DNA of 64,000 nucleotides from a plasmid, in NCBI RefSeq assembly GCF_054482595.1, contig NZ_JBTHVH010000004.1. One strand, written 5' to 3'. How positions within the stretch are numbered: the stretch's first letter is position 1; every line of letters begins with the position of its first letter. Of this stretch, positions 39,001 through 57,000 are shown one piece after another. Made by a program: the position numbers.

Positions 39001-42000
39001 GGGCTTTGAAAGAATCCGGTGTAACGATGAAGTTTGCTGAAGCTGAATTCGTTATTGATGCTATCGGCAGAGAAATGGATACGGATGTGATTTCAGTTCG
39101 GCATAACAGACAACAGATCCATTTATTTAATACCTATCAGGCGTTATGCCAGAAAGACCATGTGGCGGACCTCAATGCTCTTTCAAAATTTGTTGTCGGT
39201 CAAATGCATTCGGGAAAAATGCGCACGTTAGATTTGACACATTTGATAGTAGACGAAGTTCAGGATACTGACTCTATACAATTCTCATGGATAGCATTGC
39301 ATACAAGAGCTGGAGTCTATACGAGTATAGTTGGAGACGATGATCAGGCCATCTACTCCTTCAGATCCTCAGGAGGAGTCAAAATATTTCAACAGTTTGA
39401 AAAACACTTCAGACCTAACATATTTTACTTAAACACATGCTTTAGGTGTGAACCTGAAATTTTAGAGGTGGCCGGAGCACTGATAGGAAAGAATGTTTAC
39501 CGTTATGCCAAAGAGTTACGCTCGGCAAAAAAGGGAGGAGGAAAGGTCACTTTTCGTTCATATGTAGATATGGAGGAACAGATACAGGGTATTTTAAGCC
39601 TTATAAATCAGGATCCACATGGATGGGCAATTCTAAGCCGCAATAATGCTCACTTGGATGAGCTAGAAAGTTTGATCGAACAGCCAGTAATTCGTTACGG
39701 AGGTAAATCATTCTGGGATGAAAAAGAAACAAGCGATGTGTTAAGCCTTATGGCCTTTTTCCGACAATCAAATGCTCCTCGCTTAATGAAGAGAGTATTG
39801 GCATTGTTTGGAGAACAGGAATCAGTTTTGGATGATGTGGCATTGAGTATGAGAGGAAGAAAAGTTACTTTTGGCGACCTTGCCATCCCGGAGGACAGTT
39901 CTCTCGAAACAAAAACATTACATTCAAACTTCGTGCGCTTTACCCAGGAAAGTACTGATAAAGTTGAGATAGCAAAACGTTTCGCCAACCTTACGAAATG
40001 GATGGAATCGTCGTCAATCAAGATGAGGAGTAATAAAGGTACAGCAACCTTAACAAAAATTGCTTTAGACACTTGTAAACAGTGGGCAGAAAAGACTGGT
40101 TGGATGAATATGATCAATCGTGCTGCTGCAATGTCATTAGGCCCTAGGAAGAAGGACGAGGAATACAGCCCAGAGAAAGTAGTCCTATCAACCTTGCATG
40201 GTTCAAAGGGTCTTGAGTGGAATAAAGTAATAATAATGAGTTGTAATGCGGATCAGATACCAAGTAAAAGATCAGTTGGGGAGGAGGCAATAGAAGAAGA
40301 AAGACGTTTGCTTTATGTTGGATTTACGCGTGCAGAAAAGCAACTTTTTGTAATGTGGTATGGTGACCCTTCTTTCTTTTTAAGAGAATGCAGTGAAGAA
40401 AAGATAAAAGAAGCAGCTAATATTCGAATTTCTCCAGTTTATACAGAATAATTCGATATGGGCATTTACTTATGCTTAAAGCTATAGTATAAAAACAATG
40501 AGCTTAAATATCAGCTCCCAAATTTGAGTAACTTTGCTTAAAGTTACTTTCGCGTTAAGCGTTGATTTAGCCGTGAAAAGCGGCCAGCTTAAACAAGCTG
40601 TAAGACACCACCGGCAAAATGTCACCTTTGTCGCTGGTGCACTTCCCATGCCTGAAAAAGGCAATCTGAATTTACCAAACCGTAACTAATTTAGCTCCTC
40701 CTGGAGCTATTTTTGTTGCGTACTTCTAATGCCAGATAGTATAAATCAGGCGGTTCATAGCTTACGGGAGATGAATGACAGGCTTTGCCTTCGTGTTGAA
40801 ACAAAAAATTGTTTCTTCCTTCTTACTATATATAGGTGACCCCAAATGTCTAAAAATAAAGCTCGCAGTAAAGCCCTTCATCAAACCTTTAGTGAAATTA
40901 TTCCAGAGATGGATAAGGCGCTAAACAAACAGCTCTTAGAAGTTCTGATGAAATATACAGAACGTGATAATGAACTGATTGTTATTTTGAATGAGGACGG
41001 CCCAAATATCATTGAACTTAAGTCTCTTAAGCCTGTGTCTTTGTTGGCCGAAAAGCTTTCTGCTTATTCAAGCTATTATCATGTGGATGTTGTGGAGCTC
41101 GTGGTCAAGAAAATTGATTTCGAAGGAGCTTATAAGCTTCTTAAAGCTTCCCCAGATGTACCACTTTTTAAAAGCTTAACTGAACTGGATAAATATCTTG
41201 TTGAGGAGTTTGAAAAATACGGATTAAATTCATTTCTTGACGTGGATAATCTGGATTACTCACTTGAAAAAGCCAGTGAACTCAAAAATGAGCAGTTAAT
41301 AAATTGGGTTTCGGACATCATTTGCAAACGTGAAAAATTAACTTTACGTAAGCGTTTTGATGTCGCAGTAAAGGCCCACTACGAAAATGTAGAAAAAATG
41401 TATGATACCATTCGTCCGTTAATGAAAAAACTGGGTTTCCCAGAAGATCTCATGACGCACACCTTTAGTGAGTTAAGCGTTTTTGAAACTAAAGGATGGG
41501 ACCATGCAATAAAATCGAAAATTGAGACTCTCGCTAAGCGTGAAACTCAATATTTAGATGATGCGGCTAAAGCAGAGAATCGACGTCTTGTAACAGAGAA
41601 GTTGGAGAACTCTTTAGCGATTGCACCAACTAAACCAACAAGAAATTGGTTACATATTGCCGGAATTGCCTGTTTGGTAGTCTGCACGTTCATGTATGTA
41701 ACTAATAAATTTATTTAATCCTGTTAAGGGGGAACCCTAACGGGGCTTCTCTTTGAACAAATCGAGGAGCGGAAAATGTCATATCTTGAATATATCAATG
41801 AAGTAAAAGTGTCCGGGATAGTTATCAGTGCTGTGGAGAAAAAAATGACTGACCAGAGTATAGGTTTGTTAATAAAGCTCAAAAATAGGATGAAGACAGA
41901 AGTTGATGGTGAAATCACTGAGAGAGAATTTTCAGTTCAAATCAAGGTGTCGCCTGAAATGTATTCAACCTGTTTCACTGGTATAAATCAGGGTGATGAG

Positions 42001-54000: not shown

Positions 54001-57000
54001 ATATGCCAGATATATATATTAAGTTTAACGATACATTTGATGGGAACGGGGCGTTATATTGTGACAATGATGCCCTCATATCCCTCTATACCGATGTTGC
54101 TTCAATTATCAATGTGCCGGTGATGATGGAAGTAAGATTGATCAATAAAAGAGGGCGTGTTGTCTGTGATTCTTCGCATTCAACTTACGTATCTCTCGAA
54201 AGTAATGACCGATACAGAGTAACTGATCGCACATTACTAATAACTGAAGCTTTTGACGATTTTCGTAACGCGTCTCAATGATCCTTTTGCTTCAGTCCAA
54301 AAAAGTAACTTTGGTTGGCTGAAGACACTTGTCTATGACAATGTAAAATCTGTCGCTGGCATCTTCTTTTAGCTTAACCAAATTTTTATCTAACCCAGTG
54401 GGGAAGTCGCTTCCCTTCTGGGGCACTTCCTCTCAAATTCGAGGTAGTGTATATGACACATTCATCTGATGATAAAAACTATGTCCGAGCAGTTCTGAGT
54501 TATCTTGGCATAGATTTTGATGAGGCGGATATAGTATTAAGTGTTTGCCATTGTCAAAGTGACGAGCTTTCTTTTACCTGTAATATCAAAGCTATTGAAC
54601 TCAAGAATGTTGTTGATTTATATGTCGATAGTATCTCTGAGAATGAAATAGAAGCTTTAAACAGAGAATCTTTAAAATCGCGACTCTGTTACTTTCTTGA
54701 GGTGTTTGACGCAGTCTCTGGTCAGTACCTTGAAATTTCAGGAAAACACTTTGCAACTAGTCGTTTTGAATATGATGATGTTTGTAGTGAAGTTCTTAGC
54801 ATGTCTAATGATGTTTCTCAGTCGAAAGGTTATGACCGGGATGAATATAACAGACTGATGCAGGTTGATGGTCAGGTTATGATTGCCCGTTTTGCTTTGC
54901 AACAGTTCTGGGATACTCATTTTATTGGACTAATAACATTTGTATCTGAGTCTATAACATCGAGCCTCTATAAAGCTTATGAAACTTTTAGTGATATTAG
55001 TTTGGCTTGCTATAAACTGAGTGAATATTCTTATTCACGCTCTATCAACAGTGAATTGACCCTTAATATTTCACTTAAAGAAAATGACTTCTGTGAGGAC
55101 CTATCTGATTGCTATATGGAAGATGAGGCTTTACCTTCTGGTAGGGTAATTTCTCGACGCAACAATGACTCCATAATAAGTATTTATGAGAGCTATGCTG
55201 CGGCTTCTTATATTCCGATGATTGCATCTTTGGAAGTCGTTGATGAATACGGCGAAGTGGTTACTGACCTCTGCCATACCGTTTATGTTTCAGAGTTAAC
55301 CGGTGGGCGGATTAAAATCCACGACCGTAATGACTTAGTATCTGAAGTTTTCGATAACCTAAGAAATTTAAATCTTGCAGTTGGAGATTCAGTTTCACAA
55401 GCTGCTTGATTCTTTCCCTGATTTTGATTTTTTCTCACATACTCTTATGGCACGGTTTCCGTGCCTTTTTTTTGCCTCGCTTACAAGCGTCTACTCCTCT
55501 TCTACCTATCCCACCTTACATCACCACTTAAAATCTATCTTTCTAATTCCATTATCCTTTTCGTAGCCTCTAATGCTCTGGTATGAACATACTCTTTAAA
55601 CTCAAAAAAGTGCTATTAACGAAAAAAAATCCCTAAAGAGATTTGTATACTGTTCTCAACCAAGGAGAGCTCATGAATGAACTAAAATCCAAAAACGAGA
55701 ACAGTACCAAAAGCAACTTTCCCCCGGTTGATAATCAGTTTTGCTTTTACCATGTTGATTTCAGCATAGAACGACTACTTTCTACGGCCGAGGATCTCCA
55801 GCTTGAGTACATCTTCCAGAAACCTGGAAGTGAAGTAAGAAAGGATTTGGTTGAGCGATTCGAACGTGGAGAGCGCTTTGTTACAGCTTCACACTGTGAC
55901 AATTTCTGTGAAATCCTTGGTTGTCAAGGCCATCAGGAAAATGCATAAACCCATAAACCTACATTTCCACTTTTAAGGATGTTCACTAAAGAATGATTGG
56001 AGAAAGTATTTTTGACTGGGTAATTTACGGAATATCCATTTTGATATTTGCCTCAGCACTAATTGAAGGAAAGACAACTCGCTACCCAGCACTTTTTTTC
56101 TATGGGAGTTTAATTTTAATGTTAATCCTGATAGTTGCTGGAGGCCTTAACTGGTGGTTCTACAGGTCAAAATATGGCGCAGTAATCGTTATCTTCACAG
56201 TGGTTTCTTTACTGATGACTCGATTCCGCCTGGTCATATATAAATTAAGATTAAGAAAGTTAGTTTCAGAGATCAGATTTCGTATAAAAACGGGTTTTCG
56301 TATAATTCTTGTTTTGTCGGATAATGAGGATGAGCGTAATGTTCTGCTGTCTATGCTTAGCAACGTATTGCCAGAGCAAACGCTTATTCACACGCGTGAT
56401 GCTCTCGGACCTCATTCAGGGCCTATCCTAAAAGCTCTTGAGCTACATCATCAACAGGGAACAGGTTACATACTCGTCTGTGAACAACAAATCTCAGCGC
56501 GTACGTGGTTGAGTATCGTAGAAAATGGGAAACCTGATACATCTATAGCTGTTAATTTTCATTCGATCCCAGAAATGGAGTGATTTTTCAATGAGTAGAA
56601 CCGTTTCACAAAGTGTCACAGAAGATTGTCTTTTTGATACCCGCACACAAGTCAGATTACAACTAAGTCGAAGCGTTCATAAAACGCTGGCATCTGCTAA
56701 AGAAATTTTACAGGGAAGGGGGGTTGATTCGGTCTCTATTGAAGATCTTGTGCGAGCCTGTCTTGAAGAGAACCAGCCAATTGATCTCGCCTCACTTTAC
56801 CTTGAAAATCTCTTAAAACAGAAAGGTACCAGCATTTGCGATTTTTAGTGTTTTCAAACCTATTAGATAAAATGCCGGTTGTGTTTATATAACATCAATA
56901 ATTTCATGCAACAGGTAAAACATGAGTACTCAAAAGCAACTTTCCAGAACAACCGGCACTGAACGTATGTTTAAGGAAGAGCTGGCGTTATCCTTAATTT

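Follow-up and report, generated by a model that had tools for sequence, protein, structure and literature searches.

Results

Setting and organization of the repeated element

The window, that is the whole 64-kb stretch of DNA analyzed here, is part of the backbone of an IncHI2 resistance plasmid, 3′ of the Tra2 genes. Between 41.7 and 54.5 kb a single operon, which encodes among others a primase-like protein, carries in its + strand intercistronic spacers 11 copies of an element of approximately 60 bases (in the mRNA), each ending at a start codon.

The copies can adopt two folds. In the stable one, fold X, hairpin I is followed by hairpin II. Hairpin I (A:A′) has the form CCCA..GGGG / CCCC..UGGG (CCCA-nn-GGGG / CCCC-nn-UGGG), and its 3′ stem and loop contain B, a copy of the Shine-Dalgarno (SD) region that acts as a decoy. 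In hairpin II the anti-SD segment B′ pairs with the SD and the spacer, and the 3′ end of this hairpin lies 0-7 nt from the AUG in the 11 copies (0-3 nt in 9 of 11). In fold Y, which is exclusive of hairpin I, B pairs with B′ in a single long hairpin capped by A′, and the SD is left unpaired. Loop II (4-14 nt) is single-stranded and U/A-rich in nearly all copies. The copies are listed below in the order of their coordinates, with folding energies in kcal/mol and matches to R1, a covariance model trained on IncHI copies only, with seven window copies in the training set.

E1, 41720..41778, + strand: hairpin I 41720-41744; hairpin II 41745-41770 (anti-SD GCUUCUC with SD GAGGAGC); ATG 41776; outside the training set, R1 15.5 bits, E = 0.5
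E2, 42164..42216, + strand: fold Y hairpin GGAGAAAUCCC/GGGAUUUCUCC 42175-42199, the minimum-energy fold; alternative hairpin II 42190-42212 (GGGA..CUCC with GGAG-UCCC); ATG 42214; untrained, R1 20.2 bits, E = 0.03
E3, 44619..44678, + strand: hairpin I 44619-44646; hairpin II 44648-44675; ATG 44676; fold Y a 14-bp hairpin 44626-44656, then U8; I = -17.2, II = -14.1, Y = -21.5; R1 E = 3.9e-9
E4, 45824..45883, + strand: hairpin I CCCAGAUGG/CCAUCUGGG 45824-45849; hairpin II 45851-45879; ATG 45881; I = -17.7, II = -11.2, Y = -17.1
E5, 47902..47967, + strand: hairpin I 47902-47931; hairpin II UUUUGCUCC/GGAGCAAAA 47934-47963; ATG 47965
E11, 49743..49805, + strand: hairpin I 49743-49768; hairpin II 49770-49799; ATG 49803; R1 E = 8.8e-10
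E10, 50351..50405, + strand: hairpin I CCCUGAUG/CAUCAGGG 50351-50377; hairpin II GGCCUC/GAGGCU 50378-50400; ATG 50403; no R1 match
E6 (archetype), 51292..51354, + strand: A 51292-51302 CCCAUGUGGGG; decoy B 51300-51307 GGGAUCAC; A′ 51309-51319 CCCCAUAUGGG; anti-SD B′ 51321-51328 GUGAUCCC; U7 51329-51335; SD GAGG 51343-51346; B″ GGAUCAC 51345-51351; ATG 51352; I = -21.0, II = -15.3, Y = -19.7; R1 54.7 bits
E7, 52298..52358, + strand: hairpin I (15 bp) 52298-52331; hairpin II CCCUCU/AGAGGG 52333-52348; ATG 52356; I = -25.9, II = -8.8, Y = -22.1; untrained, R1 30.1 bits, E = 7e-5
E8, 53282..53345, + strand: hairpin I 53282-53309; hairpin II GCACU.UCCU/GAGG.UAGUGU 53312-53340; ATG 53343; R1 E = 1.6e-10
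E9, 54394..54455, + strand: hairpin I 54394-54422; hairpin II 54423-54450; ATG 54453; R1 E = 6.2e-8

The gene after E8 is 27% identical to the gene after E9. All nine spacers listed in an earlier, sequence-only reading of this DNA contain the element at the positions given there; two more copies, E11 (49743-49805) and E10 (50351-50405), had been overlooked. The two "related palindromes" of the same reading (48187-48215 and 49537-49570) proved to be plain GC-rich terminator-like hairpins without a covariance-model match and do not belong to the family. E10 is the most divergent copy and was counted as a member because of its architecture and the same two-hairpin fold in its orthologues. E1 is the weakest member, with fold Y of only -10.9 kcal/mol; both its hairpins are kept in the IncHI1 and IncHI1B orthologues.

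That reading described a small hairpin, a second longer hairpin, a T-run and then the ribosome-binding site. This scheme needs revision. The small hairpin has only 3 bp, and in the minimum-energy fold its CCC pairs with the GGG of a second such motif, giving the 9-15 bp hairpin I. The longer hairpin is present in 11 of 11 copies (-11 to -22 kcal/mol) and is the alternative fold Y, which excludes hairpin I, while the ribosome-binding site does not follow the element: it is base-paired inside it. Paired CCC-N3-5-GGG motifs with a spacing of 15-19 nt occur at 42165/42182, 44619/44637, 45824/45841, 47903/47922, 51292/51310, 52303/52318, 53282/53301 and 54394/54413, a single motif occurs at 41735, and there are no further pairs with this spacing elsewhere in the 64 kb. 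The central feature, an anti-SD:SD helix with a decoy-SD alternative, which would make the element a translational device, had been missed.

Distribution of the family

R1 scored its seven training copies with E = 2e-11 to 6e-8 and recovered the three untrained copies E7, E2 and E1. On the + strand of the whole 246.7-kb plasmid it gave no match outside the family at E < 1. In a search of the kind that the sequence-only reading had proposed, copies were also found in other plasmids: R1 matched at start codons in IncHI1, IncHI1B and HI3-type plasmids, and plasmids of Vibrio, Shewanella and Pseudoalteromonas carry copies in their homologous operon, also at start codons, with E = 1e-7 to 0.03. The family is specific to one operon and conserved in distant plasmids. 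No Rfam family matched the element. The plasmids that bear it and are related to that of the window have gut and marine bacteria as hosts. In Aeromonas a distant version of the operon has, at the corresponding position, plain C(UUCG)G hairpins in tandem that leave the SD unmasked.

Covariation of the three helices

All three helices exist and are under selection. In an orthologue alignment of three lineages, which holds few independent events and from one row of which the tested structures were taken (a choice that inflates the contrast with slid controls, according to the tool documentation), 88.8% of the cells of hairpins I and II were paired and 12 pairs had changed on both sides, as against 4.8 in shuffles (0/500 as high) and 0-2 when the structure was slid. 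For fold Y 94.2% of the cells were paired, with 6 both-side changes against 2.4 (1/500) and 0-2 when slid. A sequence-only MAFFT alignment across the family gave 31 both-side-change cells for hairpin I against 13.3 (0/500), and 56 copies from 8 loci (four IncHI-type, three marine and the window) gave 82 against 30.6 in an alignment fitted to the model.

The pairing of B with B′ is cognate-specific in the window (-8.65 vs -4.60 kcal/mol, permutation p < 5e-5), on a background of complementarity raised by the G/C blocks common to all copies. Among 19 independent marine copies the cognate value was -10.08, as against -7.35 for partners from the same plasmid and -6.54 for those from another plasmid, with p < 5e-5 even when permutation was kept inside one plasmid.

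Compensatory changes or cognate-specific complementarity were seen for all three helices in IncHI1, IncHI1B and HI3-type plasmids. In E6 the three segments B/B′/B″ covary, GGGAUCAC/GUGAUCCC/GGAUCAC being replaced by GGGAUUAC/GUAAUCCC/GGAUUAC in IncHI1 and IncHI1B; the HI3-type orthologue of E2 has B GGAGAAAUCCC, B′ GGGUUUCUCC and B″ GGAGAAACC, and that of E4 has CCCUUGUGGG/CCCACAUGGG, with the inner stem changed on both sides. The B:B′ pair of E5 (GCAAAAG/CUUUUUGC in the window) becomes GCAAAACGAC/GUCGCUUUGC in IncHI1 and GCAAAAUGAC/GUCGUUUUGC in IncHI1B; here an extra 5′ part of B′ pairs with B only, not with the SD, and covaries. Fold Y of E11, with 13 pairs including three G-U, is identical in all three lineages. 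The earlier suggestion of selection on secondary structure is borne out, since pairing is kept while the copies diverge, and its open choice between RNA and DNA falls to the + strand RNA, to which the G-U pairs, the strand asymmetry, the pairing of the SD and the fixed position before the start codon all point.

Stability of the folds and occlusion of the SD

The shared stable structure sought by folding the spacers is present: the 61 nt before the start codons had a mean z of -4.1 relative to dinucleotide shuffles (33 copies, three plasmid lineages), and the + strand fold was the more stable in 25 of 33 copies. Where hairpin II is a separate helix, which is so for ten of the window copies, its energy is -8 to -15 kcal/mol. 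Hairpin I and fold Y differ little in energy, the absolute difference dG(Y) - dG(I) being ≤1.5 kcal/mol in 6 of 10 evaluable window copies; among the marine copies Y is the more stable in 13 of 19. For the window copies, fold X as a whole has an advantage of 8-17 kcal/mol over Y. The median accessibility of the SD core was 0.18 in the element copies and 0.39 in 31 other genes of the 49-kb flanking locus (p = 0.005). The SDs of the element copies are strong, yet less accessible. At equilibrium the SD is predicted to be occluded, essentially always closed.

Discussion

A putative bistable lock on translation initiation

We favor, with moderate confidence, the view that the element is a bistable translational lock on the ribosome-binding site of each cistron, acting in cis in the + strand polycistronic mRNA. 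In the ground state, fold X, hairpin I would sequester the decoy B and hairpin II would close the real SD; were the 5′ arm of hairpin I unavailable, B could capture B′ and fold Y would leave the SD free. The SD would thus be open only if that arm is occupied, removed or not yet paired. Because the argument rests on anatomy, we infer translational control: the switch would govern initiation per cistron, and so the amounts or timing of 11 proteins. With X 8-17 kcal/mol below Y and the SD closed at equilibrium, the lock requires a trigger. In order of preference, the first candidate would be that the RNA divides between hairpin I and Y during transcription, or refolds once an endonuclease has cut it; the second, termination of a ribosome on the preceding cistron, which could work only if no more than about 9 nt separate the stop codon from the element; and the third, a plasmid or host factor or RNA that may bind the conserved A-CCC 5′ arm.

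The second candidate leads to classical translational coupling by RNA unfolding, which as a full explanation seems unlikely. The upstream ribosome would melt the 5′ arm of hairpin I, B would capture B′ and the SD would open, with about one initiation predicted per upstream termination. The switch input is indeed the part nearest to the upstream stop codon, the gap between stop codon and hairpin I is 1-11 nt for 7 of 11 window copies, and when 12-15 nt of the mRNA are masked, in imitation of a ribosome positioned at the stop codon, Y becomes the preferred fold for E3, E8 and E9. Both pairing partners are in the spacer, where 35-45 nt separate them from the stop codon; this is too far for the anti-SD to be unfolded directly and would explain why a relay (B) is needed. 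Coupling across +52 nt has a precedent in rpmI-rplT (PMC12548453). However, the gap is ≤9 nt in only 16 of 50 copies and >30 nt in 11 of 50, and for E9, E11 and their orthologues the distance to the stop codon is 112-213 nt (112 nt for E9; E11, 209 nt 3′ of the stop codon of the primase-like gene, has a 5′-UTR-like position). Under a realistic footprint E4, E5, E6, E7 and E10 fail to switch; E6 and E7 require a mask of 21 nt, and E1, E4, E5 and E10 never switch. Structure directly after the stop codon, moreover, reduced coupling efficiency in the summary that PMC12548453 gives of Chemla et al.

RNA processing sites had been proposed too in the sequence-only reading. We are equally doubtful that the copies are processing or segmental-stability elements, at which an endonuclease cuts the polycistronic RNA and Y or hairpin I caps the 3′ end of the upstream piece. 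RNase E could act in the gap or in loop II, whose A/U-rich single strand suits it, and a cut in the loop would leave an upstream fragment ending in the Y hairpin and U residues; RNase III could act on the stacked helices. The tandem hairpins of the Aeromonas operon, without SD masking, suit a role in stability or insulation, and recurring intercistronic hairpins have precedents in the T7 early RNase III sites and the T4 CUUCGG hairpins. Stems of 9-15 bp are nevertheless short for RNase III, and a pure stability role needs one hairpin, not three covarying helices of which one masks the SD. Cleavage would also strip the anti-SD from the SD, and could therefore be the trigger of the lock rather than an alternative to it.

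The proposal of the sequence-only reading that the elements are attenuating terminators appears improbable. A leaky terminator formed by Y and a U-run, with hairpin I as antiterminator, would end a fraction of transcripts and set a descending mRNA gradient along the operon. The GC-rich fold Y runs into U5-U8 at E3, E4, E6 and E8, the terminator-like sequences of a consensus scan include 44626-44656 and 53296-53314, loop II is U/A-rich throughout the family, and two exclusive hairpins of near-equal energy have the classic attenuator geometry. The T-run had been taken as general; of the nine window copies that were aligned, only those four have one of at least 5 T. E2 has four T, E7 and E9 lack a U-run, and by inspection E1 and E10 have none. 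Family-wide, a run of ≥5 U follows B′ in 11 of 53 copies and ≥5 U within 8 nt in 19 of 53, and the IncHI1 orthologues of E3 and E4 have lost or broken the tract while keeping the helices. U-tracts are a minority trait, and termination is therefore not the conserved function; it would also leave unexplained why B′ always pairs with the SD, keeps its register to the AUG and shows covariation.

Features of the DNA itself, namely dimeric-protein sites on CCC-N4-GGG palindromes, REP/MITE-like repeats, or primase or promoter hairpins on transferred ssDNA, are very improbable. The blocks are partly palindromic, share one orientation and lie in an operon with a primase-like gene, but the family is restricted to one operon and one strand, copies differ in sequence with the pairing retained, every copy is in register with SD and AUG, and its G-U pairs would be A-C mismatches on the other strand. 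Nor does the earlier idea of single-strand promoters on transferred DNA fit, with the relaxase genes, mobI and the presumed oriT >100 kb away. RNA thermometers, suggested by the thermosensitive transfer of IncHI plasmids and by SD-masking hairpins with G-U pairs and bulges, are hardly credible, as in 11 of 11 copies the probability computed for an unpaired SD core stays level between 15 and 50 °C and hairpin II far exceeds known thermometers in stability.

Relation to known systems

The putative lock resembles translational attenuation of the ermC/cat type (segments 1:2 and 3:4 replaced by 2:3), where SD and AUG are buried in a hairpin and freed by an exclusive upstream pairing, with occupancy of the most 5′ segment as the input. 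Here, in contrast, segment 1 is not covered by a leader peptide, no copy is overlapped by the upstream ORF, the loop of hairpin I contains the decoy, and 11 copies stand in one operon instead of a single 5′ leader. Bistable or kinetically controlled mRNAs such as lambda cIII, the MS2 maturation-gene leader and hok, which refolds after 3′ processing, likewise have two folds of comparable energy that set the state of the SD, chosen by folding order or processing; those are single idiosyncratic leaders, whereas the present family is modular and precedes unrelated genes.

The T7 early RNase III sites and the T4 intercistronic C(UUCG)G hairpins, the latter reportedly described by Tuerk et al. in 1988, are also recurring modules between cistrons of one long transcript, conserved in structure more than in sequence, and the Aeromonas relative of the operon uses tandem UUCG hairpins; the phage elements, however, are not SD/anti-SD/decoy triplets, and cleavage is here only a candidate. 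In coupling by RNA unfolding (rpmI-rplT, f1 genes VII-IX, MS2 coat-lysis/replicase; PMC12548453) a structure also silences the downstream ribosome-binding site in a polycistronic mRNA, but the inhibitory partner lies within, or in reach of, the upstream ORF, while many of the copies here have no stop codon close enough. Rho-independent terminators and trp-type attenuators have a counterpart at E3, E4, E6 and E8, where a U-run follows Y and hairpin I would be the antiterminator; they differ in that most copies here have no U-tract and orthologues do not conserve it. REP/BIME and other intergenic repeats are similarly short imperfect palindromes between co-oriented genes; the present element, unlike them, is confined to one operon and one orientation, diverges in sequence with its pairing kept, and stands in every copy in register with the start codon.

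Genetic context and recurrence of the element

Among the cargo of IncHI1 and IncHI2 plasmids are multidrug, NDM and typhoid-associated resistances. The part of the window analyzed here (41000-55000) is 100% identical to many IncHI2 plasmids, e.g. pHNGD64-NDM (NZ_MW296099; replicon IncHI2A, relaxase MOBH). The element region is located directly downstream of the Tra2 genes trhF, trhU, trhN and trhI and consists of a run of co-oriented + strand genes:

Element region, + strand: several hypothetical proteins
Element region, + strand: CobS-like AAA ATPase
Element region, + strand: DUF3150 protein
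Element region, + strand: CobT-like VWA protein
Element region, + strand: primase-like toprim protein
50403-55409, + strand: five tandem genes of 292-320 aa, one element copy before each

None of the five tandem genes has an NCBIfam family, and the one searched in PHROGs (at 50403) received no family assignment. Only 53343 and 54453 are detectably related to each other (27% identity), and the five-gene block is absent from HI3-type plasmids. Since the relaxase cluster (mobI, mobH, traD) maps to 159-165 kb in the record of 247 kb, over 100 kb from the element operon, the latter is not the leading region.

The sequence-only reading had listed nine spacers with a recurring element; folding of each spacer confirmed it, and two further copies with the same fold picture (49743-49805 and 50351-50405) bring the total to 11, designated E1-E11. 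The CCC-N-GGG motif noted at these sites takes the form of pairs of CCC-N3-5-GGG spaced by 15-19 nt at eight of them and of a single motif at the ninth, and no such pair occurs anywhere else in the 64 kb. When the 61 nt preceding the start codon were folded for 33 copies from three lineages, the mean z score against dinucleotide shuffles was -4.1. Palindromes at 48187-48215 and 49537-49570, previously regarded as relatives, proved to be ordinary terminator-like hairpins giving no match to R1, a covariance model trained on 26 IncHI copies with hairpin I (described below) as the sole specified structure. By folding and the R1 search, the spacers 43189-43251 and 48184-48302 and the palindromes 48192-48209 and 49542-49564 are likewise different structures and were rejected as family members.

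Two mutually exclusive folds of the element

In the minimum-energy fold (X) the element forms two hairpins separated by a linker of 0-2 nt. Hairpin I (arms A and A', 9-15 bp) is built by pairing of the first CCC(A) with (U)GGG of the second motif and of the first GGG(G) with the second (C)CCC. In hairpin II an anti-Shine-Dalgarno sequence (anti-SD) makes up the 5' arm (B'), and the SD and spacer make up the 3' arm (B''), which ends 0-3 nt from AUG in nine of the 11 window copies, 5 nt in E1 and 7 nt in E7. In the alternative fold Y, segment B (the last G residues of arm A and the loop of hairpin I) pairs with B', A' forms the tip, and the resulting hairpin is GC-rich and stable in 11/11 window copies (-11 to -22 kcal/mol). 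The folding model casts B as a decoy that copies the SD region; the E6 segments, for instance, are GGGAUCAC (B), GUGAUCCC (B') and GGAUCAC (B''), the last followed by AUG. The two folds are mutually exclusive, Y leaving the SD and the first CCC block free. The earlier description of a small hairpin followed by a long one does not hold for the minimum-energy fold, which is X, though the long hairpin itself exists as fold Y. The blocks are ordered C1 G1 C2 G2 C3 G3(SD): nested pairing of blocks 1-4 yields hairpin I and that of blocks 2-5 yields Y. CCC has an A before it in 41 of 55 copies, and GGGR has an A after it in 39 of 54.

Selection on the helices

Orthologous spacers were taken from pHCM1 (IncHI1) and an IncHI1B plasmid, both with ~67% DNA identity to the window, and they keep the same folding despite many substitutions. 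Paired cells and both-side changes were counted for each fold.

Table. Pair counting in the MAFFT alignment of 11 spacers x three lineages (three alignment rows only, the tested structures being derived from one row)
Fold; cells paired; both-side changes; shuffled mean; shuffles as high; slid
X (hairpins I + II); 88.8%; 12; 4.8; 0/500; 0-2
Y; 94.2%; 6; 2.4; 1/500; 0-2

In E6 a three-way change is seen among lineages (C to U in B, G to A in B', C to U in B''). The 5' part of B' in E5 pairs with B alone, and both change together, from GCAAAAG/CUUUUUGC to GCAAAACGAC/GUCGCUUUGC. An independent, non-circular test on the window copies compared the duplex energies of cognate and non-cognate segments.

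Table. Duplex energies (kcal/mol) of cognate and non-cognate segments in the window copies
Duplex; cognate; non-cognate; permutation p
B:B'; -8.65; -4.60; < 5e-5
B':SD; -10.9; -5.0; < 5e-5
A:A'; -17.0; -9.2; < 5e-5

RNAalifold on the family-wide MAFFT alignment returned 8 trivial pairs only, because helix registers vary among copies; hairpin I was therefore set by hand for the model and orthologue alignments were used for covariation. In a sequence-only family-wide alignment the variable inner positions of hairpin I covary (31 both-side-change cells vs 13.3 in shuffled data, 0/500 as high), and for 56 copies in an alignment fitted to the model the count reached 82 vs 30.6. G-U pairs are present in the helices, and for 25 of 33 copies folding favours the + strand over the - strand, which places the structure on the sense RNA.

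Distribution and age of the family

The search of both strands of the 246.7-kb plasmid with R1 placed all + strand matches at E < 1 within 41.7-54.5 kb of the window, including three untrained window copies. The covariance model also recovered family members on other plasmids: orthologous copies in IncHI1, IncHI1B and two HI3-type lineages, the HI3 type having additional copies at new spacers and a DUF3150 protein just 38-40% identical. A DUF3150 peptide-pattern scan of genome contigs gave two loci, and more distant relatives were obtained by tblastn against plasmids. R1 detected over 20 copies whose ends coincide exactly with start codons (E 1e-7 to 0.03) on plasmids of Vibrio gigantis, Shewanella algae and Pseudoalteromonas spongiae, which share the module of helicase, AAA, DUF3150, VWA and toprim genes, with SSB too in Vibrio and Pseudoalteromonas. 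For 19 marine copies the B:B' energy was -10.08 kcal/mol for cognate segments, -7.35 for those of the same plasmid and -6.54 for those of another plasmid, the cognate specificity being significant (p < 5e-5) even with within-plasmid permutation; in 13 of these 19 copies fold Y exceeds hairpin I in stability.

Copies within one plasmid are more alike than orthologues across plasmids, as seen in Shewanella algae (7086-17095 of the locus), where B/B'/B'' are GGGACAC/GUGUCCC/GAGGACACACC, and in Pseudoalteromonas spongiae, where they are GGGGAUACA/UGUAUCUCC/GGAGGAGAU and loop II hardly varies (CAACAUCUCUU). The latter copies are:

6436-6528, Pseudoalteromonas spongiae locus: element copy
7126-7204, Pseudoalteromonas spongiae locus: element copy
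8815-8898, Pseudoalteromonas spongiae locus: element copy
10384-10468, Pseudoalteromonas spongiae locus: element copy
12619-12689, Pseudoalteromonas spongiae locus: element copy

Judged from these sequences, such likeness suggests that the copies evolve in concert or that each lineage requires a particular sequence, perhaps because of a trans-acting partner.

In the window no Rfam 15 family matched at gathering score. At E <= 1 over 41500-55600 the search gave only two microRNA families, a Bacteroides sRNA and a retroviral 3'-UTR element, all four at chance level and far short of their gathering scores; the literature searched yielded no description of the element. By these comparisons the element is a genuine cis-RNA family of old evolutionary origin, with robust statistics and an evident two-state design, and it is a candidate for a new Rfam cis-regulatory family. 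The three-helix device traces back to an ancestor common with the marine Vibrio, Shewanella and Pseudoalteromonas plasmids, which indicates that selection on the module for control after transcription is strong and long-standing.

Comparison with known regulatory classes

Translational coupling by RNA unfolding likewise involves a downstream RBS silenced by structure; it differs from the present case in that here the inhibitory partner would probably lie beyond the reach of the upstream ribosome in most copies. The gap between the stop codon and hairpin I has a median of 13 nt (<=9 nt in 16/50 copies, >30 nt in 11/50), and computed masking by a ribosome footprint switches E3, E8 and E9, not E4, E5, E6, E7 and E10, E11 being placed like an element of a 5'-UTR. 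The masking results and gap lengths lend no support to a simple ribosome footprint as a universal trigger.

Attenuators of the ermC type also hold the SD/start region in a hairpin, the counterpart of hairpin II, which covaries here, and also free the SD by mutually exclusive pairing, here through the B:B' helix, but the element has no leader ORF overlapping its first segment. Between the end of the upstream ORF and hairpin I there are 1 to >200 nt, with no overlap in any copy. Two leader candidates were rejected: a small ORF running into E11 in IncHI2 has no convincing SD and in IncHI1 and IncHI1B stops before or inside hairpin I, its end differing in the three lineages, and a 9-codon ORF inside E6 (ATG 51296 to TGA 51323) is absent from the orthologues, which have ATC for ATG. 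We class the element as a cis-acting, SD-sequestering mRNA switch that follows the logic of ermC attenuation and of coupling, apparently without the defining feature of either.

A Rho-independent terminator would share with the element a stable GC-rich hairpin (Y), but no conserved U-tract follows directly 3': a U-run of at least five after B' is found in 11 of 53 copies, and the IncHI1 orthologues of E3 and E4 have lost the tract. Termination is a minority property of the family. As regards processing, T7 RNase III sites and the T4 CUUCGG hairpins are likewise recurring intercistronic modules. A site of the T7 type has about two helical turns of duplex and is cleaved in vivo; the stems of the element measure 9-15 bp, and hairpins I and II might stack coaxially. 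The leaders of lambda cIII, the MS2 maturation gene and hok are bistable too, but the element differs from them as a modular family before unrelated genes. An RNA thermometer was rejected since the SD stays paired, its computed unpaired probability being unchanged from 15 to 50 C, and REP/BIME-like dispersed repeats were dismissed by the confinement of the + strand R1 matches to 41.7-54.5 kb.

Proposed function

The SDs behind the element copies are strong, yet the computed accessibility of the SD core has a median of 0.18 vs 0.39 for 31 other genes of the 49-kb flanking locus (p = 0.005). In the ten window copies with hairpin II as a separate helix it amounts to -8 to -15 kcal/mol, and the SD is predicted to be closed at equilibrium. 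Hairpin I and fold Y are within 1.5 kcal/mol of each other in 6 of 10 evaluable window copies, and being nearly isoenergetic they leave the system poised. Unavailability of the 5' arm of hairpin I would be both necessary and sufficient for the SD to open.

The reading we rank first, and consider somewhat probable, is a bistable translational lock. Only a switch accounts for the conservation of all three helices, which are shown by folding and covariation, the translational effect being what the model predicts from them: a terminator would need Y alone, a stabiliser or insulator one hairpin, and a plain RBS mask hairpin II alone. Several routes of opening can be envisaged. The RNA might partition co-transcriptionally between hairpin I and Y prior to the emergence of the SD; a cut in the A/U-rich loop II might release the SD, with Y then capping the upstream fragment; or a factor or an RNA might bind the conserved A-CCC arm. 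A ribosome terminating upstream would be the obvious choice but would reach some copies only. TrhI, encoded upstream, was ruled out as a hairpin-opening RNA helicase, as it is a UvrD/Rep-like DNA helicase.

Fold X might instead serve as a ribosome hand-over device, which we regard as improbable. The abutting hairpins I and II could stack base to base, looping out the ~55-nt element and bringing the upstream stop codon and the next AUG side by side; with the SD hidden, only a ribosome that had just terminated upstream would start the next cistron, and fold Y would be a reset or escape state. In most window copies 1-11 nt separate the stop codon from hairpin I. If true, this would be a bacterial analogue of shunting/bypassing, fixing stoichiometry across the 11 cistrons.

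Under the lock reading, 11 cistrons of an IncHI2 backbone operon would be locked by the same conserved three-helix RNA device. Its dozens of diverged copies offer a compact, naturally replicated test bed for alternative mRNA folds setting translation in operons, and the element may serve as a portable part in synthetic operon design.

Other structures in the operon and its relatives

A long, nearly perfect hairpin precedes the primase-like gene at 48220-48290, with an outer stem of ~17 bp, an inner one of ~10 bp and an AUG within its 3' arm (..GAAACUCACAAUGCC). It is kept with compensatory differences in IncHI1, IncHI1B and HI3-type plasmids, the annotated start codon differing in each, and is a structure distinct from the element family. 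Behind the primase-like gene a GC-rich terminator-like hairpin (49542-49564) is directly followed, within 49542-49612, by a ~17-bp palindrome (GGUUAUCUUAUCAAUA..UAUUGAUAAGAUAACC) recognized by sequence reading and folding. In the next 130 nt (49650-49740), which include a small hairpin CUGAGAUGCUUGCUCAG, conservation between IncHI2 and IncHI1 is much above that of neighbouring genes. This region ahead of E11 may represent an operator and promoter, or a small RNA.

The spacer 43189-43251 before the CobS-like ATPase gene is without the element and its SD is left free; it has a conserved set of two alternative pairings of its own (AAAAUGC..GCAUUUU vs GGCAAACA..UGUUUGC), nearly identical in IncHI1 and IncHI1B. 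E9 lies 112 nt past the upstream stop codon (region 54282-54392), yet has the motif AUCUAACCCA in common with E8, where it directly follows the stop. The gene upstream of E9 may have been shortened after the duplication that gave the 53343/54453 pair.

A distant version of the operon in Aeromonas media pAeme5 (NZ_CP038449, 4943-27590) has a different recurring module just 5' of SDs, in the following spacers:

9614, NZ_CP038449: Aeromonas module
11976, NZ_CP038449: Aeromonas module
14032, NZ_CP038449: Aeromonas module
17152, NZ_CP038449: Aeromonas module
17743, NZ_CP038449: Aeromonas module
19369, NZ_CP038449: Aeromonas module
19832, NZ_CP038449: Aeromonas module
20413, NZ_CP038449: Aeromonas module

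The module is a series of 2-3 C(UUCG)G tetraloop mini-hairpins in tandem, with the consensus AAUCCUUCGGGAUAUGACGCCUUCGGGCA..AAGGA; it leaves the SD unmasked and gives no R1 match at its sites. CCTTCGGG occurs 20 times in this locus, always on the + strand, vs 0.59 expected, and the mini-hairpins are ~17 nt apart, which is the period of the CCC blocks in the IncHI element.
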